In this document: positions 9,332 through 53,637 of the stretch, piece after piece
Numbering within the stretch: position 1 is the first letter of the stretch
How the letters are laid out: each line of letters begins with the position of its first letter
Assembly: GCA_963749445.1 (NCBI GenBank)
Contig: CAVVMJ010000006.1
Location: 10,979 to 74,978, forward strand
Source: an uncultured bacterium
GTDB lineage: Bacteria; Patescibacteriota; Doudnabacteria; UBA920
Direction: 5' to 3'
DNA length: 64,000 bases
Notes under the pieces: model-generated
The model's input: the letters and a program-made list of their open reading frames with translations, nothing else
Databases searched by the model: none
What the model was told of the DNA's origin: nothing
Program-made: the position numbers and the translations under genes

Positions 9332-11246
9332 ATGCCCACCGATAATCAAATTACAGTTTTCGCCAAAACCAACTTCCGAGGCAGAGAAGCGCCTTTTGGC
9401 ATTAAAGCCGACGACCGGCGCCGCCACATGTACATTATCGGCAAGACCGGCATGGGTAAAACCACGCTCATGGAAAACATGGTCATTCAGGACATCCGTA
9501 ACGGTCACGGCGTGGCGTTTTTGGATCCGCACGGCGACTCTGTCCAGCGGATTTTGGATTCCGTGCCCTCCGGCCGCGTCAATGACGTCATTTATTTTAA
9601 CCCGGCGGATTTGGACTTTCCGGTTGCTTTTAACATTTTGGAATCCGTGGACCCCAAGTATAAGCACTTGGTGGCTTCGGGTTTGATGGGCGTGTTTACC
9701 AAAATTTGGGCGAATTTGTGGTCGGCCAGGATGGAATACATTTTGAATAACACGATTTTGGCTTTGCTGGACAGCCCGGGCAACACCCTTTTGGGCATTA
9801 CCCGGATGTACGTGGACAAAAAATACCGCAAACGGATTGTGGACAACGTCAAAGACCCAATGGTCCGCGCTTTTTGGGTGGATGAGTTCGCCAATTACAA
9901 CGAAAAGTACCGCACCGAAGCCATCGCGCCCATCCAAAACAAAGTCGGCCAATTTTTATCCAGCGCTATTATCCGCAACATTGTGGGCCAGCCCAAGAGC
10001 ACCATTGACTTGCGCGAAATTATGGACCAGCGCAAAATTTTGATTATGGATTTGTCCAAAGGCCGGATGGGCGAGGACAACTCGGCGCTGCTTGGCGCCA
10101 TGCTGGTGACCAAGCTGCAGCTGGCCGCCATGTCGCGCACCGACGTTGGAGGAAAAAGACCGCGAAGATTTTTACTTTTACGTGGACGAATTCCAGAATT
10201 TTGCCACGGAAAGCTTTGCCACAATTTTGAGCGAAGCGCGCAAATACCGCTTGAACCTGATTGTCGGCCACCAATATATTGCCCAGCTGGAGCAGGACAA
10301 GAGCACCAAAGTCCGCGACGCGATTTTCGGCAACGTCGGCACTATAGTAATTTTCCGCATCGGCGCCGAGGACGCGGAATTTTTGGTAAACGGAATTTGA
10401 GCCGGTCTTTACCCCCGTCTGATTTGGTGAACTTGCCCAAATACCAAATTATTTTAAAATTGATGATTAACGGCGTGGCTTCCGAGCCGTTTTCCGCCAC
10501 GACTTTGGCGCCCAAGCCCGAGCACAACACGGGCAACATCGGACAAAGTCATCAAGGTCTCGCGCGAGCGCTATAGCAATCCGGCCGCGGAAGTGGAAGA
10601 AAAAATTTCCCGCTGGATGGGCGCGGAATACCACCAGGAGTCGGCTTTGCAAATTGGCTCCGGGCAGACGGCGGAGCACCAGGAAGAGGAATCTTCTGAT
10701 AATTCAGTCAGCCCACCCGTTCCGGCGCCGCAAATTAAAAGTCCTGATATCAAAAAAGAAATGCCCGCGCCCCAACTATCAAATGAACTTGAATTTACCG
10801 ACGTAGGGGAGGGTTTAAAACCCTCCCCTACGGGGACGCAAAAAAATCAGGAACCCAAGCCCCAAAACCAGCAACGCGCCGATCGTCGTCCGGACCAACA
10901 TCGTAGCCAGCGCCAAGACCAACATAATCCCCATCGCGATAGAGAGAATCGCCGCCAATCGGATAACCGCCATCAGCAAAGCGGACAAAAGCCCAAACAA
11001 CCCGAACGCAAAGAAAACCCCATTTGGCAAACCGTACACGACATCCACAGCCAAAAACAAAAGCAAAATTCTGAGCAGACAAACCGCGCGGTGGCAAAAA
11101 TTTTCAAACCCGCAGAGCAGGTAAAAAACCCATCGGCTGATGAATTTTCGCGGCAAGATCTGTCTCCAGTTGTCCCACAACCCCCAACCCCTCCCAAACC
11201 CGCCGAGCGCACCGTCCTCAAACCCAACCAGCAATATAAAATTTAG
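9332..11246 (+). pseudogene. TraD/VirD4/TraG-family type IV coupling-protein-like P-loop ATPase. As written the gene is disrupted by four +1 frame changes at roughly 10143, 10392, 10416 and 10541. It ends in a long disordered Gln/Arg/Pro-rich tail.
   Basis: Walker A HMYIIGKTGMGKTTL..FLDPHGD in frame 2. Walker B YFYVDEFQNF and LIVGHQYIAQL in frame 0 (ORF 10146..10400). EFEPVFTP is in frame 1. SDLVNLPKYQIILKLMINGVASEPFSATTLAPKPEH is back in frame 2. DKVIKVSRERYSNPAAEVEEKISRWM is in frame 0 (ORF 10593..11246). Every shift sits at a homopolymer. Confidence 0.55.
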
Positions 11247-11567
11247 CTGGCGGGTTTGGAACGGTTTGACCAAAAATAAACCGTGGCATAAAATAGGTAA
11301 ACAACAATAACAAATATATGTTATCCACAGACGATATCAAAAAACTGACAGATTATCAAATCGAGGTTTTTAAAGATGTTTTTGCCACACAAAAAAATGG
11401 CTGATCTCCAATATTCCGTGGATTCTTTTGCCAAGGATAAGCGGACCAAAGACCAAGAAATCCCCGTCCCCGGCCGCAGAATTAAGGACGTGGGGAATTG
11501 GATAGACAAAGCCGCGCTCACAAAGTGGGCGTAAGCTTTGAACATTTTTGAACATTAGCGTTAGTTT

Positions 11568-11600
11568 TAAAAACCGCTGCCCCGAGCAGCGGTTTTTTGT
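11568..11600 (+). terminator. Intrinsic terminator AAAACCGCTGCCCCGAGCAGCGGTTTTTTG. A near-identical copy sits at 13616.
   Basis: GC stem followed by a T-run. Both copies are preceded by the identical string ttgaacattagcgttagtttt. Confidence 0.6.
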
Positions 11601-11679
11601 AAACGCGTGCGTGTGTATTATTAAATAGGTGATAGTCGGGGGAGGGCAGGGATTTTTACATTTCAGTATTCAAAAAAAT

Positions 11680-11713
11680 GTTACATTTGCGCGTACGTAC
11701 TCGCAAATGTAAC
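11680..11713. repeat. Palindrome TTACATTTGCGCGTACGTACTCGCAAATGTAA, an operator-like inverted repeat. A degenerate copy sits at 13720-13753.
   Basis: Perfect 11-bp arms around a CGTACGTAC centre. Confidence 0.5.
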
Positions 11714-11744
11714 AAAAAAAGGCTTTCAATAACGATAACAAAAT

Positions 11745-11768
11745 AATGGGTCATGTCCCCATTTGTCC
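11745..11768. repeat. Hairpin repeat AATGGGTCATGTCCCCATTTG. Further copies at 12726-12748 and 13926-13970.
   Basis: Three copies, each 100-250 nt upstream of a toxin-antitoxin cassette. Confidence 0.45.
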
Positions 11769-11874
11769 TATAAAGGTCTTGCCCAAAAAAACCGTTACTT
11801 CGGTAACGGGTTTTTTGTATTTAAAAAATTGGTGACAAATTTATGGGAATACGGGAAAGAAACTTTTGGCAAAA

Positions 11875-11919
11875 GTTGATGGCTTGTGCAAAATGCCAAA
11901 TGTCCAGACTTGACCCCCC
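11875..11919. repeat. About 50-nt repeat GTTGATGGCTTGTGCAAAATGCCAAATGTCCAGACTTGACCCCCC (rep50 copy 1 of 4). Other copies at 12895, 13791 and 14701. Its GTCAAGACTTGACCCC core is REP-like and also forms the terminal repeats of the Y1 transposase.
   Basis: Found by direct sequence comparison. Confidence 0.6.
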
Positions 11920-11994
11920 TTTCCTATCCTTTCCCAAGAAAACAGAGTTTACGCCGGACTTTTCAAAATCGCCATTTTATGATACCATACGGGT

Positions 11995-12276
11995 ATGAAT
12001 ATAGAAGAAATTAAAGTTAAAATTACCCCGATACTTTTAAGGCACGGGGTCAAGCGTGCCGCGGTTTTTGGCAGTGTGGCCAGGGGAGAGGAGCGGCCGG
12101 ACAGCGATGTTGATGTGGTTATAGAAATATCCAGACCGTACGGATTGTTTGAGTTTGTGGAGATAAAGCACGGTATGGAAGATACTTTGGGCAAAAAAGT
12201 TGACTTAGTTGAGTATAGTTCCATTAAACCCAGAATCAAAGATAATATCATCAAAGACCAAGTGCGGATATTATGA
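11995..12276 (+). CDS. Nucleotidyltransferase (MntA-type antitoxin of an MNT/HepT pair)
   Basis: GS..RG....SD.D sequence AAVFGSVARGEERPDSDVDVVI. Confidence 0.7.
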   Translation: MNIEEIKVKITPILLRHGVKRAAVFGSVARGEERPDSDVDVVIEISRPYGLFEFVEIKHGMEDTLGKKVDLVEYSSIKPRIKDNIIKDQVRIL

Positions 12277-12617
12277 TTAATCCGGGCGCGAGAGGATACC
12301 TTGAAGATATTTTGGAAGCTTTGGAAAAAATCCAAAGATATGTCTTTGGTATGTCCCTGGAACAGTTTAGGAATGATGAAAAGACGCAAGATTCAGTTAT
12401 TCGGAATTTTGAAATCATCGGCGAGGCGGTTAAGCGCATTTCAGAGGAATTTAAGAACAGCCACCCCGAAGTTCCATGGCGCTCCGCCGCGGGGATGAGA
12501 GACGCTTTGATTCATGATTATCCTAATATTGTGGCGGATGTTGTCTGGAAAACTGCGGTGGAAGATTTGCCGGTATTTAAAAAACAGATTACCGGATTAC
12601 TGAAGGATAATCCGTAA
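12273..12617 (+). CDS. HepT-like (DUF86) toxin
   Basis: It overlaps the MNT gene by 4 nt. RNFEIIGEAVKRISEEFK..PEVPW..GMRDALIHDY matches the HepT/DUF86 pattern. Confidence 0.7.
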   Translation: MINPGARGYLEDILEALEKIQRYVFGMSLEQFRNDEKTQDSVIRNFEIIGEAVKRISEEFKNSHPEVPWRSAAGMRDALIHDYPNIVADVVWKTAVEDLPVFKKQITGLLKDNP

Positions 12618-12894
12618 GGTTGGCGATTATTGTAAAATATCAAATGTCAAAATTTGACCCCCTGACGTTTAAGATTTGACCCCTGACGATGGGCGGTAAG
12701 ATATCCCGGCAAGCCAAAAGCTAAATAATGGGCCATGTCCCCATTTGCATTTGTCATCTTTGAGCATTAATATCACTTTTAAGAACCGCTTCTTATAGGG
12801 CGGTTTTTTGTTTTTGTCCAATTTTGAAATAACGCGCAGCCGAGCGTAAAGTCAACAAGGGTAATTTAGTGGGGGACGCATTATTTAAAACAAG

Positions 12895-12950
12895 ATGGTA
12901 AAAGCTGATGGCTTGTGCAAAATGTCAAAAATTCGGACTTGGCCCCCTGA
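12895..12950. repeat. rep50 copy 2
   Basis: GCTGATGGCTTGTGCAAAATGTCAAAAATTCGGACTTGGCCCCCTGACC. Confidence 0.55.
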
Positions 12951-12997
12951 CCTTGATACTTCCAGAAGTTCTGCTATAATACCACCAATAAACCTTT

Positions 12998-13288
12998 ATG
13001 AATTTAGAACAAATCAAGAAAAAAGTCAGCCCTGTGCTTCGCAAATACCGAGTGGAATACGCGGGTGTTTTTGGTTCGGTTGCCAGAGGCCAGGCGCGGC
13101 CGGACAGCGACGTGGATCTTTTGGTCAGGTTTGAAAAGGTTCCGAGCTTAGTGCAGTTTATCCGAATGGAAAACGAGCTTAAAGAAACATTGCGGACTAA
13201 AGTTGATGTGGTGGTGCAGGGTTCGGAAAAATTTCTTATTAAGCCCGGCATTGAAAAAGACTTAGCTTTACTTTATGGACAGAGATGA
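12998..13288 (+). CDS. Nucleotidyltransferase (MntA-type antitoxin), a paralog of the 11995 gene
   Basis: GVFGSVARGQARPDSDVDLLV. Confidence 0.7.
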   Translation: MNLEQIKKKVSPVLRKYRVEYAGVFGSVARGQARPDSDVDLLVRFEKVPSLVQFIRMENELKETLRTKVDVVVQGSEKFLIKPGIEKDLALLYGQR

Positions 13289-13598
13289 ACAATACAAACA
13301 GGATATTTTGGAAGCGATTTCCAAAATTGAGCAATCCGCGGCAGACTTGACTTATGAAAGTTTTGTAAACGATGCCGATACCTTTGACGCCTGTGTCAGG
13401 CGCTTGGAGATTATAGGAGAAGCAGTTAAGCGTTTATCCGGCGACATTAAAGACAAGGCACCGGACGTTCCCTGGAAAGAAATCGCGGGCTTTCGGGATA
13501 AAGCGATCCATGATTATGCGAGTTTAAATGCCGCCATTGTATGGGAAACTATCCGCACCGACGTACCGCAACTTAAAGCGGCTTTGTTGAAGCTTTGA
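13275..13598 (+). CDS. HepT-like (DUF86) toxin, a paralog of the 12273 gene
   Basis: RRLEIIGEAVKRLSGDIKDKAPDVPWKEIAGFRDKAIHDY. Confidence 0.7.
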   Translation: MDRDEQYKQDILEAISKIEQSAADLTYESFVNDADTFDACVRRLEIIGEAVKRLSGDIKDKAPDVPWKEIAGFRDKAIHDYASLNAAIVWETIRTDVPQLKAALLKL

Positions 13599-13615
13599 AC
13601 ATTAGCGTTAGTTTT

Positions 13616-13648
13616 AAAAATCGCTGCACCAAGCAGCGGTTTTTTGTA
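13616..13648 (+). terminator. Intrinsic terminator, a copy of the one at 11568
   Basis: AAATCGCTGCACCAAGCAGCGGTTTTTTG. Confidence 0.6.
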
Positions 13649-13790
13649 AAAATGCCGGTTGTTTAATATACGCGAGGTATTTCAGCGGAAAGTGCTCTTC
13701 TTGGGATGTGCAAAATATTGTTACATTTGCGCGTACGTACGCGAAAACGCAACAAAGGGGAAAAAGATTTGTAACGGATTTATTTTGAAA

Positions 13791-13836
13791 GTTGATGGCT
13801 TGTGCAAAAATGTCCAATGTCAAGACTTGACCCTCT
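13791..13836. repeat. rep50 copy 3. Its core contains the perfect palindrome GTCAAGACTTGAC.
   Basis: GTTGATGGCTTGTGCAAAAATGTCCAATGTCAAGACTTGACCCTCTG. Confidence 0.55.
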
Positions 13837-13847
13837 GTTTATTTAAT

Positions 13848-13920
13848 GGCGACAAAGTTAGGCTTAAATTCCACTTTAAGACGTCGCGGTGACCTAAAAA
13901 AGGTTCCTGACACCTTTTTC
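13848..13920. repeat. About 70-nt repeat GGCGACAAAGTTAGGCTTAAATTCCACTTTAAGACGTCGCGGTGACCTAAAAAAGGTTCCTGACACC (rep70 copy 1). Copy 2 is at 14804-14878.
   Basis: Two near-identical copies flank the HigBA cassette. Confidence 0.6.
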
Positions 13921-13985
13921 TTCCTAATGGGTCATGTCCCATTTGTCCTCCTTTGTCCCATTTGTCATTCCTGCTTTTTGCCCAC

Positions 13986-14013
13986 TTGACAGGCATATCT
14001 TATATGATATACT
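13986..14013 (+). promoter_or_regulatory. Promoter TTGACA-N16-TATACT with the TATACTAGTAGTAA extension
   Basis: Shares its extended -10 with the 6447 promoter. It lies 20 nt upstream of the higB-like start. Confidence 0.45.
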
Positions 14014-14032
14014 AGTAGTAAAATAAACACTT

Positions 14033-14398
14033 ATGGACGAATATAAAATTACGTTTTTTTATAATCCGGATACGGGGAAAATTCCGGTTCGGGAGTACTT
14101 GGACGGCATCGCCCAAAAGGAAAGGGCTAAAATTTTAAAGTACATTGAATTTTTAAGGGAACACAAAGGCGTACTTGATGAGCCATATGCCAAGCATATT
14201 CGGGATAAAATCAGGGAATTGCGCGTGGATTTTGGCGGAAACAGGCATCGAGTTTTCTTTTTTACTTTTGTCGGAAAAAATATTATTCTGCTCCACGCTT
14301 TTCTTAAAAAAACCACGGCAACTCCGGAATCGGAAATAGGCAAAGCGTTAAACAATTACCATCAAATTATTAATAACCCAAAGCTTTATGAAAACTAG
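14033..14398 (+). CDS. HigB-like toxin (Gp49/RelE-ParE superfamily)
   Basis: Pattern ..REYLD..KERAKIL..I..L..LRVDFGGN.HRVFF..GKNIILLHAFLKKT..TP..EI, followed by a 3'-overlapping HTH antitoxin gene. Confidence 0.6.
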   Translation: MDEYKITFFYNPDTGKIPVREYLDGIAQKERAKILKYIEFLREHKGVLDEPYAKHIRDKIRELRVDFGGNRHRVFFFTFVGKNIILLHAFLKKTTATPESEIGKALNNYHQIINNPKLYEN

Positions 14399-14687
14399 AA
14401 TAAGTCTAAAAAAATCAATAAGCTTTCAGGCTTACTTAAAAGCCCAGCTTAAAAATCCGCAAGTTAAAAAACATTACGATGAAGCCGGCAAGCGCTTAGA
14501 AATCGCTTATCAAGTGATTCAGTTGCGCAAGGAGGGAGGGGTATCCCAGTCGCAATTGGCGAAAAAACTGGGTACAACGCAAAGTAATGTTGCCCGCATA
14601 GAAGCCGGACAGCAAAATTTTACCGCAGAAACTTTGCAGAAAATCGCAAAAGCATTCCGGCGCGATTTGCGCATTGAATTTGTCTAG
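14388..14687 (+). CDS. XRE-family HTH antitoxin (HigA-like)
   Basis: LRKEGGVSQSQLAKKLGTTQSNVARIE helix-turn-helix. Confidence 0.6.
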   Translation: MKTRISLKKSISFQAYLKAQLKNPQVKKHYDEAGKRLEIAYQVIQLRKEGGVSQSQLAKKLGTTQSNVARIEAGQQNFTAETLQKIAKAFRRDLRIEFV

Positions 14688-14700
14688 AAGCGGTTAAAAA

Positions 14701-14746
14701 GCTGATGATTTATGTAAACTGTTCAATGTCTAGACTTGGCCCCCTA
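14701..14746. repeat. rep50 copy 4 (degenerate)
   Basis: GCTGATGATTTATGTAAACTGTTCAATGTCTAGACTTGGCCCCCTATCGC. Confidence 0.45.
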
Positions 14747-14803
14747 TCGCTTCTCTATGAAAAGAGGTGGCCCACTAGGAAAAGATTCCTGGGTAACTGT
14801 GAT

Positions 14804-14878
14804 GGCGACAAAGTTAGGCTTAAATTTCACTTTAAGACGTCGCGGTAGACCTAAAAAAGGTTCCTGACACCTTTTCTT
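14804..14878. repeat. rep70 copy 2
   Basis: GGCGACAAAGTTAGGCTTAAATTTCACTTTAAGACGTCGCGGTAGACCTAAAAAAGGTTCCTGACACC. Confidence 0.6.
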
Positions 14879-15102
14879 TGTCCAAAAAAAACAGGACCGG
14901 CGTTCCACAGGGGGAACGTCGGTCCGCGAGTTTGCCAGTTATTTGTGCCTGCGTTGGGCGCACCCGCTGGAACGGGGCTAGTAGGAGGCGACATACAGCG
15001 TCCCTCCGCTGACAGCCAGGTAAATGTTGTCGGAGAGCCGGGCAGTGCCCAGGTCAACTTGGCTCATTGCGCCGGCTGATAATGAGATACGATATACGAT
15101 AC

Positions 15103-16186
15103 GGGGTCAAGTCTATATTCTTGACAAAATATATTTGAGTTGATATTGTTTGATTATGGCCAGACCATTAAGAATAGAATACGAAGGTGCTTTTTATCAT
15201 GTTATTAATCGTGGTCTGGAACGCCGGGAAATATTCCGCCAGCCTAAAGACTACGAATATTTTTTAGGGCTGCTCGAATATATATACGAGAAATACGGAG
15301 TTATCGTTTACGCCTTTTGCCTAATGCCTAATCACTACCATCTATACCTCCAAACTCCCCAGGGAAACTTAAGCAAAGCCATGCGCCAGTTAGATGGCAA
15401 CCATACTCAGAAATTTAATAAACGCTATAAGAGAGTAGGCCCGCTGTTTCAAGGGCGTTACAAGGCAGTTTTAGTAGACAGCGACAGTTATTCCCTGCAA
15501 TTGGCCAAATATATCCATTTAAATCCTGTCAAAGCCAAACTAATACAAAAGCCCGAAGATTATCAACATTCCAGCTACTCCTCATATATCGGTAAAACCA
15601 AAGCCCCGATATTTCTTAACACTAAATGGGTGCTTTCTCAATACGCCAAGTCAAAAGGTAAAGCTGTTAAAGAGTTAAAAAAGCATACACTCGAAGCCCA
15701 AGAGGAAGATTGGGAGCCCGAAAAAGATACTTTTAAGAGCTTGATTTTAGGTGGCAGTGATTTTGTTAACCAAATACAGGAAGAATTTTTACAGGGAAAA
15801 GAAAATTTTGAAATTCCTAAGCTTAAAGCTGTTCAAAAAGTTTTATCCGCGCATGAAATAATTGCTAAAATTGACAGGCTTAAATTGGGTGAAAATGACA
15901 AGACCAAAATTATTGTTTACGCGTTAAAGAGGTACAGTCCGTTGACCTTAAAAGAGATAGGGGAGCAGTTTAATAATTTGCATTATTCCGCTGTCGCACA
16001 GATACTCATCCGACTGCAAAAGAAATTATCTACAGATAAACAGCTTGCAAAAACTGTCATTGAGGTTGATAAACTGTTTAACAATAAGTTAAAAATATAG
16101 ACTTGACCCCATATTCATATTCAAAAACTGTCATTGAGGTTGATAAACTGTTTAATAAGTTAAAAATATAGACTTGACCCCATATT
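15103..16186 (+). mobile_element. IS200-like / REP-associated-type Y1 (HuH) transposase element. Left terminal repeat GGGGTCAAGTCTATA at 15103-15117, right terminal repeat TATAGACTTGACCCC at 16096-16110, and a 62-67-nt tandem duplication of the right end (16050-16116 and 16125-16186).
   Basis: The terminal repeats are exact reverse complements of each other. The same core occurs in the rep50 copies scattered upstream. Confidence 0.6.
15150..16100 (+). CDS. Y1 HuH transposase (IS200/IS605-type or REP-associated tyrosine-transposase-like) with a roughly 170-aa C-terminal extension
   Basis: YHVINRG..ERREIF..DYEYFL..YAFCLMPNHYHLYL (the HuH motif) ..GPLFQGRYKAVLV..YIHLNPVKA..HSSYSSY. Confidence 0.7.
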   Translation: MIMARPLRIEYEGAFYHVINRGLERREIFRQPKDYEYFLGLLEYIYEKYGVIVYAFCLMPNHYHLYLQTPQGNLSKAMRQLDGNHTQKFNKRYKRVGPLFQGRYKAVLVDSDSYSLQLAKYIHLNPVKAKLIQKPEDYQHSSYSSYIGKTKAPIFLNTKWVLSQYAKSKGKAVKELKKHTLEAQEEDWEPEKDTFKSLILGGSDFVNQIQEEFLQGKENFEIPKLKAVQKVLSAHEIIAKIDRLKLGENDKTKIIVYALKRYSPLTLKEIGEQFNNLHYSAVAQILIRLQKKLSTDKQLAKTVIEVDKLFNNKLKI

Positions 16187-16354
16187 GACTATAACCGGCG
16201 GGGGCGGATAAATCAGCTTTAAACTTTTCCCGCCAAAATTTAAATTTAAGTTTTAGCGGAAAATGTGCTAAAATATAATCCCTATTGAATAGGGATTTAA
16301 ATATTTTGATGATATTTTTGGCTTAAGTAAAAGTAATTTTAAATTGAGGGGTTA

Positions 16355-22489: not shown

Positions 22490-22996
22490 ATGCACAGAAA
22501 CAAAATTATGATCAAAAAATATTGGGCGCCCCTGCTAATTCTGGTTTTGCTGGTTATTATCACAGTCGCGGCCAAAGTCCTGCCCAAGCGGCAAGCTGTG
22601 CCCAATTCTGCTTCCAAGCCTTCGGCCAGTTCTCAAGCCCAAACCCCTCCCCCGATGCCCCAGGTGGCGGCTGTGCCTCCGGCCAAGGTGCCGCCGGGCC
22701 TGCCTGCCAACCTGCCCTGGGAAAAAGGCGCCACTATCCTTCAGAACTTCACGGCCAAAGACCCTGTCTCCGGCAAAACCCAGTCCACGCGGGAGTACGT
22801 TAGCGCCAAGAGCCTGGATGACAATTTTAGCGTTTACCAAAAGTATCTAAAGGATAACGGCTGGACCGTGGTCTCCGGCATTAGCCAGCCCACCATCAAG
22901 AACCTTTCCGCCGCCAAAGCCGGTGCCCGCCTGGACGTGACCATATCCAAAACCCCGGACAACAAAGTTACGGTCATTGTCAGCTACGTGGATTAA
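22490..22996 (+). CDS. Membrane-anchored hypothetical protein with a Pro/Ala-rich linker
   Basis: N-terminal TM helix ILVLLVIITVAA. No recognisable domain. Confidence 0.35.
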   Translation: MHRNKIMIKKYWAPLLILVLLVIITVAAKVLPKRQAVPNSASKPSASSQAQTPPPMPQVAAVPPAKVPPGLPANLPWEKGATILQNFTAKDPVSGKTQSTREYVSAKSLDDNFSVYQKYLKDNGWTVVSGISQPTIKNLSAAKAGARLDVTISKTPDNKVTVIVSYVD

Positions 22997-29400: not shown

Positions 29401-29495
29401 AATTTTTCTATCTTTACTAACTACTAATCAATACTAATATACGAATAGTGCGCTTGTATTAGTATATTCGTAAAAATTAGTAGTTAGTAAAGCCA

Positions 29496-30888: not shown

Positions 30889-33057
30889 ATGAAGCAACAA
30901 AAATTTAAATTTTACACCCAAAAAGGCCGTTACTTAAATTTTGTCGGGGAGCGGCAAAATTTGACCTGGAAAACCGCGCTGAAAACCTTGCCAAAATTTA
31001 TTTGGGCAATTGTTGTCGGCGTATGCTTTCGCTTCGGCAGCGCGGTCTACGGGTTTTTCAGTCGGTCGCTGGCGTTCATCCAAAAACAGCTTGCCGCGAC
31101 AGCCGCAGCGGCGCGGCAAAGATTAGCCTTGATAAAAAACGGTCATCTGGGTAAAACCCTGGCCACCTTTCTGGTTATCGCGCTTTTGAGTTATGGCGGA
31201 CTGGCCGCGTTTCATTTATTGGCCAAAGGACTGGAGCTCAAAAATCGCCTCGTGAACGTGGCCCTGCTCGGCAGCCAGGATTTAGCTGATGCCAAAAATG
31301 CTTTACAAGATCAAAATTTTAGCGAAGCCGGGGCAAAATTTCAACAGGCTTATCAGGCCTTTGCCACCGGACAAAAACAGTTGGCGGATGAAAACCGCGG
31401 ACTCAACGATTTGCTGAATTTGCTGCCGCAAAAACAGGATTCCGACAAATTGTTCGCGGCCGCGGCGCTGTTGTCGGGCGCGGGCGAGAATTTTACCAAA
31501 GCCTGCCAAAATTTCGGCAGTTTGAGCATTACGGCCGTTGGCCTTTCCGGCAATGGACAAAATAATCCCGATTTAGCCGCTTCCAAAACGCTCATCGATA
31601 CAGCTTTGGCTCAAATTAACCAAGCCGGGAACTTGGTTCAAAGCGTCAACTCCAATTTGCTGCCCGGAGCTTATCGCGAAAAACTGGCGGCCCTGCAGCA
31701 AAATTACGTCATTATCCAGCGGGCTTTTGAGGATTTGCGCGATACCGTAAATTTGGCTTTTGGCCTGTTAAACGGCGACAAGCGCGTACTGCTTTTAATG
31801 GAAAACAATAACGAACTCCGGCCGACCGGCGGCTTTATGGGCACTTTTGGCGATGCCCATATTGTTAATGGCAACCTCCTATCCTTAAACGTCAGCAGTA
31901 TTTACGATTTAGACGGTCAGCTGTCCCAAAAAATCCAGCCGCCGTTTCCGATTTACGCGGTCAATGACCGCTGGTTTTTACGCGATGCCAACTGGTTCGC
32001 GGATTTTCCGTCCACGGCCCAAAAAATCACCCACTTCTACGAACAGGAGGGCGGCCAGACTCCGGACGAGATTGTCGCGTTAACGCCCACGGTTTTACAA
32101 AATCTGCTGGCCCTCACCGGGCCAATCCAACTGCCGCGCTACGGCGTCACTTTGACGCCTGACAATTTTATTGAAACTATTCAAATCCAGTCTTCGATTT
32201 ATTACAATGGCTCGGACAACAAGCCCAAACAAATTTTGGCTGATTTGTTTCCGGTTTTGCTCACGCGGCTCGGCAGCCTGCCCAAAGAACAATTTCCACA
32301 GCTACTGCAGATTATCCAAGACAGCTTTAACCAAAAACAGCTGGTTTTATACGCGCGCGACAACCCAACCGAAACCCAAATCAAAGCCTACAACTGGGGC
32401 GGCGGGATTTTGGACGCTGACCGTGACTATTTAAATATTATCAGCGCCAATTTAAACGGCAGCAAAACCGATTTGTATTTAAAACAAAGCCTTAACCTAA
32501 AAACATCGATTGCCAAAGACGGCCAGCTCACCGACCAGCTCATTATCACGCGCACCAACACCATGCCCGACCTTCCGGGCACGGCCAACGCCAGCTTTAT
32601 CAGGATCATGGTGCCGCAGGGCTCTACGCTCGTCAGCAACGCGGGTTTTGACTATAATACCGGCACGCCTCCGGACACTGCCGGATACCAAACCGACCCA
32701 GATGTTGCGGTCTGGGAACAAAGTATTGTCAAGGATTTTGTCTCCGGCACCAGCATCGGCCGCGAGGCGGGCAAAACTTTTTTCGGCAACTGGCTCACGG
32801 TCAAAGGCGGCCAAACCAAGACCGTGACATTGACCTATAGGTTGCCGTTCAAACTGGCAAGCCTTGATCATTTTAGCCTCTTGGCGCAAAAGCAAATCGG
32901 CGCCCTGCCCGCGGATTTTTCCTACAGCCTGGATTTTCCGGCGCGGCATTTGCTCTGGCAGAATTTTTCGCCGGATAATTTACAGGCTGACCATTTCACT
33001 TATAATTTCAGTTTGGATAAAGACACTTTGCTTGGGGAAGTGTTTGGTGGGTATTAA
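30889..33057 (+). CDS. DUF4012 domain envelope protein
   Basis: N-terminal TM helix and the signature LLLMENNNELRPTGGFMGTFG. Confidence 0.6.
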   Translation: MKQQKFKFYTQKGRYLNFVGERQNLTWKTALKTLPKFIWAIVVGVCFRFGSAVYGFFSRSLAFIQKQLAATAAAARQRLALIKNGHLGKTLATFLVIALLSYGGLAAFHLLAKGLELKNRLVNVALLGSQDLADAKNALQDQNFSEAGAKFQQAYQAFATGQKQLADENRGLNDLLNLLPQKQDSDKLFAAAALLSGAGENFTKACQNFGSLSITAVGLSGNGQNNPDLAASKTLIDTALAQINQAGNLVQSVNSNLLPGAYREKLAALQQNYVIIQRAFEDLRDTVNLAFGLLNGDKRVLLLMENNNELRPTGGFMGTFGDAHIVNGNLLSLNVSSIYDLDGQLSQKIQPPFPIYAVNDRWFLRDANWFADFPSTAQKITHFYEQEGGQTPDEIVALTPTVLQNLLALTGPIQLPRYGVTLTPDNFIETIQIQSSIYYNGSDNKPKQILADLFPVLLTRLGSLPKEQFPQLLQIIQDSFNQKQLVLYARDNPTETQIKAYNWGGGILDADRDYLNIISANLNGSKTDLYLKQSLNLKTSIAKDGQLTDQLIITRTNTMPDLPGTANASFIRIMVPQGSTLVSNAGFDYNTGTPPDTAGYQTDPDVAVWEQSIVKDFVSGTSIGREAGKTFFGNWLTVKGGQTKTVTLTYRLPFKLASLDHFSLLAQKQIGALPADFSYSLDFPARHLLWQNFSPDNLQADHFTYNFSLDKDTLLGEVFGGY

Positions 33058-33073
33058 TCATAAGCTTTACTGC

Positions 33074-33148
33074 CATCCCGGAATTTTTTGCGCAGATGGT
33101 TATCGCAAGCCGCAAAAAATATCCGGGATCCAGATTCTGGATCCCGCA
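33074..33148. repeat. Family R-hp intergenic hairpin element CATCCCGGAATTTTTTGCGCAGATGGTTATCGCAAGCCGCAAAAAATATCCGGGATC (copy 1 of 3). Others at 44583-44668 and 49318-49400.
   Basis: Three near-identical copies, all just 3' of genes. Arms CCCGGAATTTTTTGCG / CGCAAAAAATATCCGGG. Confidence 0.65.
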
Positions 33149-44306: not shown

Positions 44307-44567
44307 ATGGAAAATTCGCCAAAAGAACCGGACAAACCTCCTAAGAACCCCGAGCAAAAACTGGTCGGCATACTAATGCTGGAAGCGGGGATAGAGTTTG
44401 CCTTTTTAATTGCCGCGCCGCTTTTGGCCGGAGTGCTGGTTGGCAAATGGCTAGATGACAAATATCATCATAATTTCTTCGTGATTATCGGGATTTTAGC
44501 CGGATTAGCCATAACCTGCTTTGCGATTTACAAAAGAATTATTGATTACAAAAAGATGCTTAAATGA
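44307..44567 (+). CDS. AtpZ/AtpI-like small membrane protein preceding atpB
   Basis: Two TM helices. Position and pattern LIAAPLLAGVLVGKWLDDKY. Confidence 0.45.
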   Translation: MENSPKEPDKPPKNPEQKLVGILMLEAGIEFAFLIAAPLLAGVLVGKWLDDKYHHNFFVIIGILAGLAITCFAIYKRIIDYKKMLK

Positions 44568-44582
44568 CCGCCCTGCGGCGGT

Positions 44583-44668
44583 CATCCCGGATTTTTTTGC
44601 GCTGATGATTATCGCAAGCCGCAAAAAATATCCGGGATCGAAAAAATAGATTCCGGATATTTTGCAAA
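44583..44668. repeat. R-hp hairpin element copy 2
   Basis: GTCATCCCGGATTTTTTTGCGCTGATGATTATCGCAAGCCGCAAAAAATATCCGGGATCG. Confidence 0.65.
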
Positions 44669-46011: not shown

Positions 46012-46183
46012 TTAGGTTTTAGAACTGATGATTGTCGCTTTGACGATCATCAGGATTTACAACTTAAAATACCTCTACTAAATACTAAAGTATACTAAAA
46101 GTACGAAATACGAAACAGAAGTTAGCTAGTTTAGTATTTAGTATATTTAGTACCTTTTAGTATTTAGTAGAAGAATATAACCC

Positions 46184-46744: not shown

Positions 46745-46884
46745 CCACGGAGTTTCTCCTCCTTTCAAAGGAGGAGTACCCGCCACAGGCGGGGGAGGTG
46801 GTGAAATAAAACGCAGGCCAAACTCCAACCACCCCGTCGGCTATCGCCGCCACCCCTCCTCAGCAAGGAGGGAAGCTCCGCAGT
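46745..46884. repeat. R4 composite multi-hairpin element, intergenic copy A (module order 2-1)
   Basis: ..GAGTTTCTCCTCCTTTCAAAGGAGGAG..GGGGGAGGTGGTG...CTCCAACCACCCCGTCGGCTATCGCCGCCACCCCTCCTCAGCAAGGAGGGAAGCTCCGCAG. Confidence 0.65.
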
Positions 46885-47802: not shown

Positions 47803-49302
47803 ATGGCCTCAACAAACATAGTAGAACAACTAAAAAATAAAATCGCCGCGTTCCAGGCGGACGTGAGGGTAGAAAAAGTCGGGACAGTTTTGGAGGTGGG
47901 GGACGGCGTGGCACGCGTGAGCGGGCTTAAGGATGCCGCCAGTATGGAAATGTTGGATTTCGGAAACGGAGTTTTTGGCGTGGCGCTGAACCTGGAAGAA
48001 AGCGTTATCGGCTCCATCATCTTGGGCGATTATACGCATATTAAAGTCGGGGACACGGTACGTTTGACAGGAAAAATTTTGTCCGTGCCTGTCGGCGAAG
48101 CGGTTGTCGGCCGCACCGTAAGCGCGCTTGGCGAACCTAAGGATGGTAAGGGGCCGATTAAATCAGACAAATTTTATCCGACAGAAAAAATCGCGCCGGG
48201 CGTAATCACGCGCCAAAAAGTCAGCCAGCCGGTGCAAACCGGCATCAAAACCATTGACTCGCTTATTCCAATCGGCCGCGGCCAGCGAGAACTGATTATC
48301 GGCGACCGCCAAACCGGCAAGACCGCCATTGCCATAGACACCATCATCAACCAAAAAGGCCAGAATATGATTTGCGTTTACGTAGCTATTGGCCAAAAAG
48401 AAAGCAAGGTTGCCAAAATTGTCGCGGAACTGGAAAAGCACGGCGCCATGGAATACACCATTGTGGTCTCGGCTTCGGCTTCGGATCCGGCCGCTTTGTC
48501 TTATATTGCGCCGTACGCGGGTTGCGCGATGGGCGAATATTTTATGGACCAGGGTAAGGACGTGTTGGTGGTTTATGATGACCTGTCCAAGCAAGCGGTT
48601 GCTTATCGTGAGATATCACTTTTGCTCCGCCGCCCGCCGGGACGCGAAGCTTATCCCGGTGATGTGTTTTATTTACATTCCCGATTGTTGGAACGCGCCG
48701 CAAGATTAAATAAAGATTTTGGCGGCGGGTCATTAACGGCTTTGCCGATTGTGGAAACCCAGGCCGGCGACGTTACCGCTTACATTCCCACTAATGTGAT
48801 TTCAATTACTGATGGACAGATATTTTTGGAAACCGATTTATTCTATAAAGGCATCCGCCCGGCATTAAACGTCGGCATTTCCGTTTCGCGCGTCGGCGCA
48901 GCCGCGCAGACAAAAGCGATGAAGAAAGTCGCCGGCAAATTAAAACTACAATTGGCGCAATTCCGCGAATTGGAAGCCTTTGCGCAGTTTGGCTCCGATC
49001 TAGACCCCGAAACCCAAAGGCAACTTGACCTTGGCCGCCGCATGACCGAAGTCCTAAAACAGCCGCAATACACGCCTTTTGCCTTGGAAAAAGAAGTTAC
49101 AGTCCTTTACGCGGTCAACAACGGCTACTTTAATCCAATTCCCGTTGAAAAAATGGCGGAAACCGAGAGCAAATTTCACCAGTATATGTCCACCCAAGCC
49201 AAAGACGTCCTGGAAGAAATCCGCACCACCCGCGAACTCTCCGACTCCACGGAAGCCAAATTAAAAAAGGCAATTGAACAGTTTGTGCAGACGGTAAAAT
49301 AA
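47803..49302 (+). CDS. atpA: F0F1 ATP synthase subunit alpha
   Basis: [16 protein letters not shown]-loop and alpha-type flanking motifs. Confidence 0.9.
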
Positions 49303-49317
49303 CCCGCCCGACGTGTC

Positions 49318-49400
49318 CATCCCGGAATTTTTTGCGCAGATGGTTATCGTGAGCCGCAAAAAATATCCGGGATCCAGACTTAAGCTCGTCTCTGGATCCC
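49318..49400. repeat. R-hp hairpin element copy 3
   Basis: CATCCCGGAATTTTTTGCGCAGATGGTTATCGTGAGCCGCAAAAAATATCCGGGATCCAGACTTAAGCTCGTCTCTGGATCCCGG. Confidence 0.65.
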
Positions 49401-49717: not shown

Positions 49718-50765
49718 ATGCCAGGTATTAAAGAACTTAAAACCCGAATAAAGTCCATTAGCGGCACGCGCAAGGTGACGCGGGCTATGCAAATGGTGAG
49801 CGCGGCCAAGATGCGCAAGAGCCAGGACGCTACTTTACGCAGCCGATCGTACGCGAGTTTGGCGTGGGAGCTGATTGGGAATTTGTCATCATTTAGTGAA
49901 ATTGCGAGGAGTGCACCCGACGAAGCAATCCCATCAGATGACGAGACTGCTTCGGCTGCACTCGCAGTTTCCGACTTGCTTAAAATCCACCCCAAAGCCA
50001 CCAAAATCGCGGTTTTAATCCTCACAACCAACAGGGGAATGGTGGGAAGTTTGAATACGAATTTAATAAATTTAGTCCAAAAAACCATCAACGAATCAAC
50101 ACTTAGCCCTAACACCTTAGCCCTTAGCCCTGACTACATCACCTACGGCCGCAAAGGCCGCGACGTCATGGTTCGCAGCCACAAAGAAGTCCTGGCAGAC
50201 TTTGAAAAATTTGACCGCACAATTTCCACGGAAGATATTTTTCCAATTTCAAAACTTATTACCGAATTATATTCTTCGGACAAATACCAAAAAGTTTTGA
50301 TTTTTTATAACCATTTTGTGTCCACGTTAACGCAAAAACCGACGGTAAAGCAGTTGCTGCCATTTACTCCAACCACCCCGTCGGCTAACGCCGCCACCCC
50401 TCCTCTGCAAGGAGGGAAAGCTCCGCGGTTATCCCGCAATACCGCGGAGCCTCTCCCCCTGCCAAGGGGGAGTACCGCCGAAGCGCGGGGAGGGGGTTGG
50501 AGAAGCAACCGATTATCTTTTTGAACCAAATCCTAAAGAAGTTTTTGAGCACCTCTTGCCCCGCATCATCGAATCCCAAATTTACCAAACCATCCTGGAA
50601 TCCGAAGCCTCCGAGCAATCCGCCCGCATGGTCATGATGAAAAACGCCACCGAAGCCGCCGGAGATTTAATATCCGATCTGACTTTAACCTACAACAAAT
50701 TAAGGCAGAATAAAATAACCACCGAGCTTGCCGAGATAACAGCAGGTAAGATCGCTTTGGAATAA
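49718..50765 (+). CDS. atpG: F0F1 ATP synthase subunit gamma. It contains an in-frame TTAGCCC-type insertion at 50102-50132 and an R4 composite element at 50367-50502. The frame changes within the R4 element, so the listed ORFs split at 50524 and 50556.
   Basis: N-terminal ELKTRIKSISGTRKVTRAMQMVSAAKMRKSQ. C-terminal DYLFEPNPKEVFEHLLPRIIESQIYQTILESEASEQSARMVMMKNAT is readable only in the second frame. Confidence 0.75.
50367..50502. repeat. R4 composite element, copy B, inside atpG (module order 1-2)
   Basis: CTCCAACCACCCCGTCGGCTAACGCCGCCACCCCTCCTCTGCAAGGAGGGAAAGCTCCGCGG..CCGCGGAGCCTCTCCCCCTGCCAAGGGGGAGTACCGCCGAAGCGCGGGGAGGGGGTTGGAG. Confidence 0.7.
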
Positions 50766-51143: not shown

Positions 51144-52712
<1,569 letters not shown>

Positions 52713-53490: not shown

Positions 53491-53497
53491 ACAAAAC

Positions 53498-53637
53498 GCG
53501 GAGCCTCTCCTCCTTCTCAAGGAGGAGTACCGCCCGCAGGGCGGGGAGGTGGTTGGAGTTGCTGACGGTAATACTCCAACCCTTCCGTCTCGCTGCGCGA
53601 TCCACCTTCCCTTTTTAAGGGAAGGAAGCTCCGCGGA
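53498..53637. repeat. R4 composite element, intergenic copy D (module order 2-1)
   Basis: CGCGGAGCCTCTCCTCCTTCTCAAGGAGGAGTACCGCCCGCAGGGCGGGGAGGTGGTTGGAG...CTCCAACCCTTCCGTCTCGCTGCGCGATCCACCTTCCCTTTTTAAGGGAAGGAAGCTCCGCGG. Confidence 0.65.

Follow-up and report, generated by a model that had tools for sequence, protein, structure and literature searches.

The window studied here, a 64,000-nt stretch of contig CAVVMJ010000006.1 from an uncultured bacterium of the Doudnabacteria (Patescibacteriota), contains an island at ~11.3–16.6 kb in which toxin-antitoxin (TA) operons and short repeats lie next to a gene for a Y1 (HUH) transposase. The sequence, a list of its open reading frames (ORFs) and Pfam searches indicated three plus-strand TA operons (MNT/HepT, MNT/HepT and HigB/HigA), followed by the Y1_Tnp gene. 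Repeat modules and operons are interleaved over 11.5–16.2 kb, and the module order varies. Most of the island has a G+C content of 29–44%, with a stretch of ~48% at 14.6–15.2 kb, while the flanks are at 50–60%. A first-pass annotation, made from the sequence alone, had described three TA cassettes interleaved with repeated modules in different orders and abutting a Y1 transposase element. Both descriptions stood: Pfam and a repeat finder, which recovered every module named at that time, supported the interleaved arrangement far beyond chance, and the Y1_Tnp gene, with terminal inverted repeats (TIRs) at both its ends, lies downstream of HigBA.

The first operon comprises MNT1 (11995–12276; PF01909/PF18765, NTP_transf_2/Polbeta), a predicted MntA-like nucleotidyltransferase antitoxin, and HepT1 (12273–12617; PF01934, E = 1.6e-29), a predicted HEPN RNase toxin with the motif RDALIHDY; comparison with a related contig (L001, see below) placed the left boundary of this cassette at ~11959. 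The second operon consists of MNT2 (12998–13288; PF01909/PF18765) and HepT2 (13275–13598; PF01934), the latter with the motif RDKAIHDY. Domain content and order are those of type VII MntA/HepT systems, with MNT 5′ of HepT, a 4-nt overlap and the catalytic motifs GSxxRG..DSDVD (MNT) and Rx4HxY (HepT), and this adjacency of MNT and a HEPN protein with Rx4HxY predicts both pairs to be TA systems. They differ from characterized members in scoring below the NCBIfam equivalog cutoffs (53.8 vs 60 bits for MntA, 49.1 vs 60 for HepT), MntA and HepT still being the nearest families; to judge from these scores, the proteins are divergent Patescibacterial members of their families. In the third operon, as in type II HigBA systems, the toxin gene lies 5′ of the antitoxin gene: a HigB-like toxin of the RelE/ParE superfamily (14033–14398; Gp49/DUF891, PF05973, E = 1.3e-21; homologues are named RelE/ParE family toxin by NCBI) overlaps by 11 nt with a HigA-like antitoxin of the HTH_3 family (14388–14687; PF01381). 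A promoter scan placed TTGATA-16-TATAAT upstream of MNT2 (12953–12980, plus strand; 11/12 consensus positions) and a promoter of equal score upstream of HigBA (13986–14013, plus strand), which overlaps the palindrome TTGACAGGCATATCTTATATGATATACT; the same scan identified no MNT1 promoter. The HigBA promoter and the palindrome ATATC-N-TATATGATAT (13997–14013) are kept upstream of HigB in other Patescibacteria (L109, L111, L113), and it is likely this palindrome, rather than palindrome P described below, that serves as the HigA operator.

Among the repeats, a unit of roughly 50 nt (rep50) had been reported before each of the three cassettes. Upstream copies do exist, but the island holds five copies (starting at 11867, 12611, 12896, 13784 and 14693; 62–85% identical), two of which precede no cassette and instead directly follow the stop codons of HepT1 and HigA (0–3 nt). 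The rep50 core AGACTTGRCCCC matches the window eight times, as compared to 0.59 matches expected by chance, and recurs at the Y1 gene itself, once in minus orientation (15103) and twice in plus orientation (16099 and 16170), with GGGG facing outward. When the five units were aligned with the 3′ ends of Y1 genes from the window and from loci L062, L080, L102, L105 and L107, they ran in register with the last ~50–75 nt of the intact genes, from A(A/G)GTTGAT to GACCCC. Accordingly, rep50 covers the final ~10 Y1 codons (...VDxLCKMSNVKT and stop) as well as the terminal repeat ending in AGACTTGACCCC, and its in-frame reading, (LA)KVDGLCKM(P/S)NV(Q/K)T followed by a stop, matches the C-termini of the family (...CKMSNVKT). 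Because of this in-register alignment, rep50 is the right end of Y1 elements of the TIRYT type (introduced below), that is, a ~25-nt terminal repeat plus the preceding ~25–50 nt of coding sequence for the transposase tail.

The solo ends differ in type. Rep50-1 (11851–11918), whose frame reads ..LAKVDGLCKMPNVQT, then a stop and the terminus AGACTTGACCCC, and rep50-4 (13784–13835) are most like the ends of the L080 and L062 genes; rep50-2 (12611–12664) starts from the HepT1 stop codon and has the junction that differs between strains (see below) in its middle; rep50-3 (12896–12947) is of the L107 type (..KADGLCKMSKIRT..); and rep50-5 (14690–14744), located 3 nt past the HigA stop codon, is of the L102 type (GCGGTTAAA..GATGATTTATGTAAA..). 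The five thus appear, on alignment, to resemble at least three different Y1 lineages, and none derives from the more diverged end of the resident gene. All seven right ends, namely the five solo ends (all plus strand), that of the resident gene and a copy behind it, share one orientation, and the solo ends are similar in length (about 55–75 nt, including the 71-nt copy at 16122–16192). Compared to shuffled sequence, rep50 has no significant secondary structure on either strand (z-scores of −0.03 to +0.70); a candidate hairpin, GTCAAG-A-CTTGAC with the apparent compensatory variant GTCAAA-A-TTTGAC, was discarded for its too short loop and non-significant fold. A metagenome scan with the lineage-specific 5′ half of rep50 (AGYTGATGGCTTGTGCAAAA) returned eight loci, all of them unrelated chance matches.

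Immediately past rep50-2 lies a tandem duplication of the junction between end and flank (12665–12690, plus strand), in which TTGACCCC(C)TGACG occurs twice. Such duplications, consisting of the last 5–12 nt of the repeat plus 5–10 nt of flank, were found at 15 of 226 ends, as against 0.33 in a permutation control, and include those in the window at 12655–12690 and 16099–16192 and others at L062, L066, L055, L078, L079, L107 and further loci. They may be the footprint of nicking at the element end.

The resident Y1 gene (15150/15156–16100, plus strand; PF01797, E = 1.3e-15) encodes a 314-aa protein with intact HUH (NHYHLYL) and tyrosine (AKYIHLNP) motifs. It scored 79.6 bits against the NCBIfam model REP_Tyr_transpos, just under the cutoff of 80, and its putative C-terminal helix-turn-helix (HTH) tail matched DnaA weakly (E = 0.0039, residues 251–305), with one homologue (P0035) carrying PF08299. 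More than 6500 homologues were found, which JGI labels "REP element-mobilizing transposase RayT"; a sequence search of the PDB gave no match at E ≤ 0.01. The left TIR, GGGGTCAAGTCTATATTCTTGAC, lies at 15099–15125 on the minus strand, and the Y1 promoter TTGACA-17-TATTGT begins within it. The right TIR extends over the Y1 stop codon and is followed by a flank of two CATATT hexamers (16083–16121, plus strand); the two arms (15099–15125 and 16088–16114) are 89% complementary. Behind it, on the plus strand, the final 71 nt of the gene and its right end are repeated as a solo copy (16122–16192), whose sequence matches the 313-aa Y1 allele of other strains.

These features place the gene in the TIRYT class of RAYT-like transposases (TnpA_REP subclass 2.1). 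In TIRtrons, RAYT-like genes are flanked by TIRs instead of repetitive extragenic palindromic (REP) sequences; many share the TIR motif GGGGWSAS, the gene may be overlapped by the repeat on its 3′ side, and TIRs are found singly, as dimers or in groups (Di Nocera et al. 2013, PMC3733652). Most TIRYTs fall into TnpA_REP subclass 2.1, whose members carry a Bac_DnaA_C-like or HTH domain at the C-terminus, and in E. coli strains a TA operon has taken the place of a REPtron locus (Quentin et al. 2018, PMC6006769). The passages of these two papers drawn on here report no biochemical activity for the class. Correspondingly, the window combines a Y1 HUH transposase of ~310 aa that is related to RAYTs and has a putative HTH tail with a weak likeness to DnaA, inverted repeats opening with GGGGTCAA (7/8 positions of GGGGWSAS), a 3′ repeat over the gene end, and extra TIR copies, five solo and one duplicate within 4.3 kb. 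It departs from published TIRtrons in that the grouped solo repeats are all right ends, each with ~25–50 nt of transposase 3′ coding sequence; in that these ends belong to several lineages and alternate with TA operons of strain-variable presence; and in that its 25-nt end, conserved over more than ten phyla (see below), exceeds the published 8-nt motif.

Two neighboring classes fit less well. REPtrons, said to have been described by Nunvar in 2010, Bertels and Rainey in 2011 and Ton-Hoang in 2012 as a RAYT gene with REP or REPIN sequences, likewise consist of a single Y1 gene flanked on both sides by a short repeat, in inverted copies, that is also dispersed through the genome, and inverted doublets of the terminus ~75 nt apart in other phyla are REPIN-like. 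Here, in contrast, the repeat forms no G+C-rich palindromic hairpin and lacks a GTAG/CGTC tag, and the protein falls just short of the REP_Tyr_transpos cutoff, as given above. In IS200/IS605 elements, TnpA measures about 130–150 aa and the ends carry subterminal hairpins and no TIRs; this assignment was rejected given the 314-aa protein, a score of 20 bits against the IS200 model NF033573 (cutoff 55) and the presence of inverted repeats.

The terminus itself is widespread. In species-representative genomes, the degenerate pattern MTRYYMAATGTCNARAYTTGRCCC, which represents the 3′ half of rep50, was found in 84 stretches (L010–L093) from more than ten phyla, whereas about four matches would be expected by chance according to our own arithmetic. 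The taxa comprised Stahlbacteria, WOR-3, Gammaproteobacteria including Coxiellaceae and Legionella, Saccharibacteria, Doudnabacteria and other Patescibacteria, Omnitrophota, Elusimicrobiota, Syntrophobacteria, Bacteroidota and Planctomycetia. Aligned matches share ATGTC(C/A)AATGTC(N)AGA(C/T)TTGACCCC and diverge right after CCCC, so this end of ~25 nt, part of which encodes the transposase tail MSNVKT and stop, is conserved nearly base for base. Many matches are inverted doublets about 75 nt apart, resembling REPINs or miniature inverted-repeat transposable elements, around which no target-site duplications were seen by eye. Copies can be numerous, with ~20 loci in MFD12922_ilm_asm_bin33 and at least 10 in the complete chromosome OZ257143.1. 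A Y1 homologue is bounded by the motif at 10 of the 84 loci, and inverted copies of the terminus core also flank close relatives of the window's Y1 gene. Most of 120 Y1 homologues end in ...MSNVKT, ...MSKVKT or ...CKM; the L080 protein terminates in ...KVDGLCKM and that of L062 in ...LILEVDHLCKMSNVKT, whose codons are the motif itself. Since L107 and L108 encode an identical Y1 protein within different flanks, relatives of this gene appear to have been mobile recently.

The closest Patescibacterial Y1 relatives sit within polymorphic-toxin loci (L080, 4874–7969; L102, 1–9988; L105, 66–8173), where an RHS/YD protein with SpvB, EndoU toxin tips and an HNH toxin tip accompanied by a DUF4265 immunity protein are encoded, besides orphan cassettes. 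Viewed alongside the TA island, this small sample suggests that the Y1 element tends toward toxin-cassette regions. At L102 and L105 the element has just its two ends and the toxin/immunity arrays are without solo ends, while at L080 two solo ends flank a gene to which they are oriented in the opposite direction. A general association of the terminus with TA genes was rejected: when the TA proteins of the window were compared by phmmer with all ORFs of the 84 terminus loci, one HepT and one HigBA pair were recovered, both more than 2.9 kb from the motif, and the neighbors of the terminus in other phyla looked, by eye and without a family search, like ordinary chromosomal genes with one ParE-like exception. 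HigBA together with a right end was likewise discarded as a conserved unit, as HigBA homologues with ~80% amino acid identity at five other loci have no right end after HigA.

To document turnover at the island, we compared the window with related contigs by BLAST, inspection of the contig sequences and alignment of the junctions. Exact-protein look-ups gave contigs for HigB and HepT2 and none for Y1 (ATG start), HepT1, MNT1 or MNT2; the exact HigB protein was present on 13 contigs from peat and wetland metagenomes, and six related contigs were informative for the MNT2/HepT2 block. The lineage is carried by samples such as ERR10755942, ERZ28656093/ERZ28655897 (WOOD18), JGI 3300014839, 3300037090 and 3300036885, and SRR23247741. 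From 13807, in the middle of rep50-4, through HigBA and Y1, all contigs are 99.2–99.9% identical to the window. One contig (L003) has the arrangement of the window, whereas the 1.14-kb segment 12665–13806, which holds H, T, rep50-3, MNT2/HepT2, T and P, is absent from five of the six (L001, L002, L004, L007, L008). There, a HepT1-type cassette (83–94% identical to that of the window, the two lowest values coming from fragments of 55 and 73 nt) is joined to the rep70-HigBA block through a single rep50 whose 5′ half is like rep50-2 and whose 3′ half is like rep50-4. The junction, located between GATTAT and TGTCCAATGTC, is not an assembly artefact, since it was assembled independently in five samples. 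Thus, cassettes have turned over between strains with a junction inside rep50, and cassette number varies, as the first-pass annotation had proposed to examine. L002 contains in addition another HEPN cassette (PF05168), with HepT1 cut down to its last ~100 nt and the breakpoint exactly at the 3′ hairpin of rep70, AAAAAGGTTCCTGACACCTTTTCTTTG; a variant form of the same hairpin precedes the MNT1 cassette in L001.

Further differences concern the Y1 gene and the location of the island. The CATATT hexamer past the Y1 right end (16111–16121) is present in one, two or three copies depending on the strain (L002, L004 and L006 compared). In L001 (3403–3457), nothing separates the Y1 right end plus CATATTCATATT from the 3′ part of rep70, whose usual place is upstream of the Y1 gene (window counterparts 14842–14896 and 16121); this suggests a tandem duplication or a circular form of a 1.28-kb unit. 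The L001 island is 94–99% identical to that of the window, while the gene upstream of it is only 76% identical to window positions 22673–22952, which argues that the island either moves as a block or has been duplicated at a paralogous site.

The remaining modules were largely as first described. Palindrome P occurs in two copies that are 87% identical, P(a) at 11671–11716 with 18-nt arms (fold of −13.9 kcal/mol, z = −6.1) and P(b) at 13711–13756 with a decayed right arm. Hairpin H is present three times on the plus strand (11741–11765, 12723–12747 and 13922–13946), the first two copies being 96% identical and the third having a 1-nt deletion. Two plus-strand copies of rep70 (13846–13922 and 14802–14878) are about 97% identical with one indel; the first folds into two hairpins (z = −2.4), and the 3′ hairpin of the module (hp27, AAAAAGGTTCCTGACACCTTTT) reappears at cassette junctions of L001 and L002. 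The description of module T required correction. Its two main copies (11547–11603 and 13594–13650), reported as identical terminators that include the last 20 nt of the upstream gene, are 95% identical and share only about 8–11 nt of the HepT2 3′ end, and further terminator-like copies exist. T(a), taken as 11536–11603 (plus strand), consists of a relic of a HepT2-like 3′ end, AGCTTTGA, a 10-nt junction duplication, TTTGAACATT, and an intrinsic-terminator hairpin; T(c), taken as 13588–13650 (plus strand), overlaps the HepT2 stop codon. A diverged copy, T(b) (61%), lies at 12759–12815 on the plus strand, and a second terminator-like hairpin, T′, at 11787–11819.

Apart from rep50, 0.00–0.08 occurrences of each module would be expected by chance, and all modules lie far above that expectation. 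None occurs elsewhere in the window, and among all fetched loci H, P and the rep70 hairpin were found only in the same-lineage contigs L001–L009. A scan of the whole window at Rfam gathering thresholds detected only four tRNAs, and in E-value mode the 11.3–16.7 kb region gave only sub-threshold matches at chance level, so that no module corresponds to a known RNA family. Between rep70(b) and the left end of the Y1 element lies a relatively G+C-rich stretch (14880–15098) with a terminator-like inverted repeat followed by T8 on the minus strand (14885–14925), seen on reading the sequence and not listed by the terminator scan. All related contigs conserve this stretch at 99%, and in L001 its start appears again behind the Y1 gene; it has no Rfam match and no convincing ORF; probably it is a relic of the end of a minus-strand gene.

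Taken together, these observations make it probable, in our view, that the 11.3–16.6 kb region is a variable, A+T-rich island, a hotspot of accretion and recombination around a TIRtron, i.e., a RAYT-like Y1 gene of the TIRYT class between the inverted repeats GGGGTCAAGTCT and AGACTTGACCCC. TIRYT elements of several lineages would have landed or decayed at the locus repeatedly and left right-end stubs behind. Between these stubs lie three self-contained TA operons, together with what would be relics of earlier cassettes (T, P, H and rep70), and gene content would turn over by recombination at short shared sequences, the middle of rep50 and the rep70 3′ hairpin, giving rise to strains with different cassette sets. 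The exchange may be passive, relying on short homology or replication slippage, and Y1 nicking at the ends possibly stimulates it; no dedicated cassette-exchange system would need to stand behind it, and the TA operons may persist through addiction. Our best reading is therefore a new example of a known element class in an unusual arrangement, and no new integron-like system.

Several points weigh against this interpretation. The five solo ends are alike in length, and two lie 0–3 nt past a TA stop codon, a tidiness in excess of random decay that may point to a cis-acting unit or breakpoint of defined extent. The mid-rep50 junction is equally what two ends would yield on site-specific recombination, and contiguous identity among the rep50 copies falls short of what ordinary RecA-dependent recombination needs. 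The enrichment of junction duplications suggests enzymatic nicking at the ends. In addition, the count of solo ends covers the 64-kb window alone, and this reading does not account for the origins of modules P, H and rep70.

The strongest rival, which we nevertheless consider unlikely, is an integron-like system driven by the Y1 enzyme, in which a cassette with its right end is excised between direct right ends as a single-stranded circle, which the neighboring TIRYT transposase then integrates at a further right end, resulting in a head-to-tail array. The shared orientation of all seven right ends, with every array unit ending in one, would be expected of such a process, as would the consistent 55–75 nt length of the solo ends. 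The segment by which the window and L001 differ has a 3′ half-repeat at its start and a 5′ half-repeat at its end, exactly as site-specific integration of a circle would leave, and the junction of right end and rep70 3′ part in L001 is compatible with a tandem or circular form. The junction duplications again point to nicking, and close Y1 relatives reside within toxin/immunity cassette arrays. Against this stand the five HigBA loci without a right end after HigA, the arrays of L102 and L105 without solo ends, the orientation of the L080 ends against the gene they enclose, and the ordinary repeat neighbors in other phyla (inspected by eye, with one ParE-like exception and no family search). 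Moreover, rep50 lacks the significant hairpin of a structured single-stranded site, and only one kind of junction was observed.

The first-pass annotation had suggested cassette acquisition by recombination at shared sites, loosely analogous to integron arrays. The first part is upheld insofar as content differs between strains with junctions in shared modules, although the shared site rep50 is a Y1 right end and not attC-like. The analogy proved only formal. Integrons combine an IntI tyrosine recombinase with attI and Pc, attC sites that are imperfect palindromes, and mostly promoterless cassettes, and some chromosomal arrays are rich in TA cassettes. The island shares with them a co-oriented series of small units that each close with a ~50-nt repeat, next to a recombinase gene, TA operons among the units, and strain-variable cassette content with a junction inside the repeat. 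Yet the ORFs of 9.3–17.4 kb include no IntI, nor were attI or Pc found there, the only recombinase being Y1_Tnp, an HUH enzyme located at the downstream end; on neither strand does rep50 fold better than shuffled sequence; MNT2 and HigB have 11/12 promoters of their own; and elsewhere a cassette with its repeat does not form a conserved unit. For the recombinase that the annotation proposed to look for, the adjacent Y1 gene is a candidate. The island is also reminiscent of the pdif modules of Acinetobacter plasmids, small modules, often TA operons, that are bounded by short recombination sites and shuffled between replicons; these are 28-bp XerC/XerD sites in alternating orientation used by host Xer recombinases, whereas nothing comparable to XerC/XerD sites was found here, where no test aimed at them was made.

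Extending this idea to the family, TIRYT Y1 transposases could be cassette recombinases that reshuffle TA or toxin/immunity arrays in Patescibacteria, with the ~55–75-nt right end as an attC-like site; a toxin operon and one right end would leave as a unit and enter again at other right ends, so that arrays are built as well as reshuffled. We regard this as quite doubtful; if true, TIRYT cassette recombination would constitute a single-stranded DNA, HUH-based analogue of the integron.

It is rather improbable, too, that the TA operons are cargo of decayed TIRtron derivatives, in which each operon took the place of a transposase gene, with a left end on one side and the final ~55 nt of a right end on the other, and the left ends disappeared later. 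The HepT1 and HigA stop codons at 0–3 nt from a Y1 3′ remnant would suit this layout, four units are bounded by the rep70 3′ hairpin on the left and a right end on the right, and L002 resembles an adjacent deletion starting exactly at that hairpin. Conversely, no inverted (left-end) copy of the terminus exists within 11.3–15.0 kb, HigBA relatives elsewhere are not bounded by such ends, and the window's MNT1 and MNT2 have no hairpin boundary.

Two further explanations carry very little weight. That rep50 is a shared promoter/operator co-regulating the TA operons is highly improbable: three copies do lie 50–200 nt upstream of operons and rep50-1 contains a weak promoter-like match (9/12), but two copies are downstream of operons, a better-matching promoter of its own was identified for MNT2/HepT2 and for HigBA (11/12 each), though not for MNT1, the HigBA promoter and palindrome are conserved in homologues without rep50, and the motif is a mobile-element end found in many phyla. 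One ancestral tandem duplication of a TA unit with promoter and terminator, followed by divergence, which the annotation had named as the finding that would make cassette exchange superfluous, is scarcely credible despite two MNT/HepT pairs in tandem and a duplicated T-P block, because genes and modules have diverged unequally (45% amino acid identity for MNT1/MNT2 and 46% for HepT1/HepT2 vs 87–97% nucleotide identity for the modules), and moreover module order is unlike between units, the rep50 copies resemble different Y1 lineages and cassette content differs between strains.

Outside the island, a HerA/TrwB-type (type IV coupling-protein-like) ATPase gene at 9332–10576 is apparently disrupted, its middle part (10146–10400) lying in another frame, and represents either a pseudogene or a sequencing error. 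Just upstream of the island, a small ORF (11319–11534) seems, by eye, to be split by a frameshift in an A7 run at ~11390–11398 (MLSTDDIKKLTDYQIEVFKDVFATQKNG and stop, then ..ADLQYSVDSF..). The window also contains other repeats: an unrelated 86-nt family (33045–33130, 44554–44639 and 49289–49374; 72–80% identical), each copy located just past a gene end and ending in the inverted repeat CATCCCGGAATTTTTTGCGCAGATGGTTATCGCAAGCCGCAAAAAATATCCGGGATC; G+C-rich hairpin families (e.g., CCTCTCCCCCTGCCAAGGGGGAG and CACCCCTCCTCAGCAAGGAGGG) clustered in 46.7–53.6 kb (46748–46874, 50366–50476, 51316–51417 and 53495–53553); and long, intergenic A+T-rich inverted repeats with 36–48-nt arms and TACTAA/TAGTA-like words (46069–46176 and 29412–29492).

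Returning to the favored interpretation of a recombination hotspot around a TIRtron, a seemingly mysterious shared repeat has been identified as the right end of a described, little-studied RAYT-like class, and strain comparisons place the breakpoints at which TA cassettes are gained and lost in this uncultivated Patescibacterial lineage at such ends. If TIRYT enzymes do not nick and recombine their ends, the locus would be an ordinary hotspot of selfish elements, transposon relics and addictive TA operons. With six co-oriented right ends, natural presence/absence alleles and junction duplications, the island offers a usable test case for nicking and recombination by TIRYT transposases.

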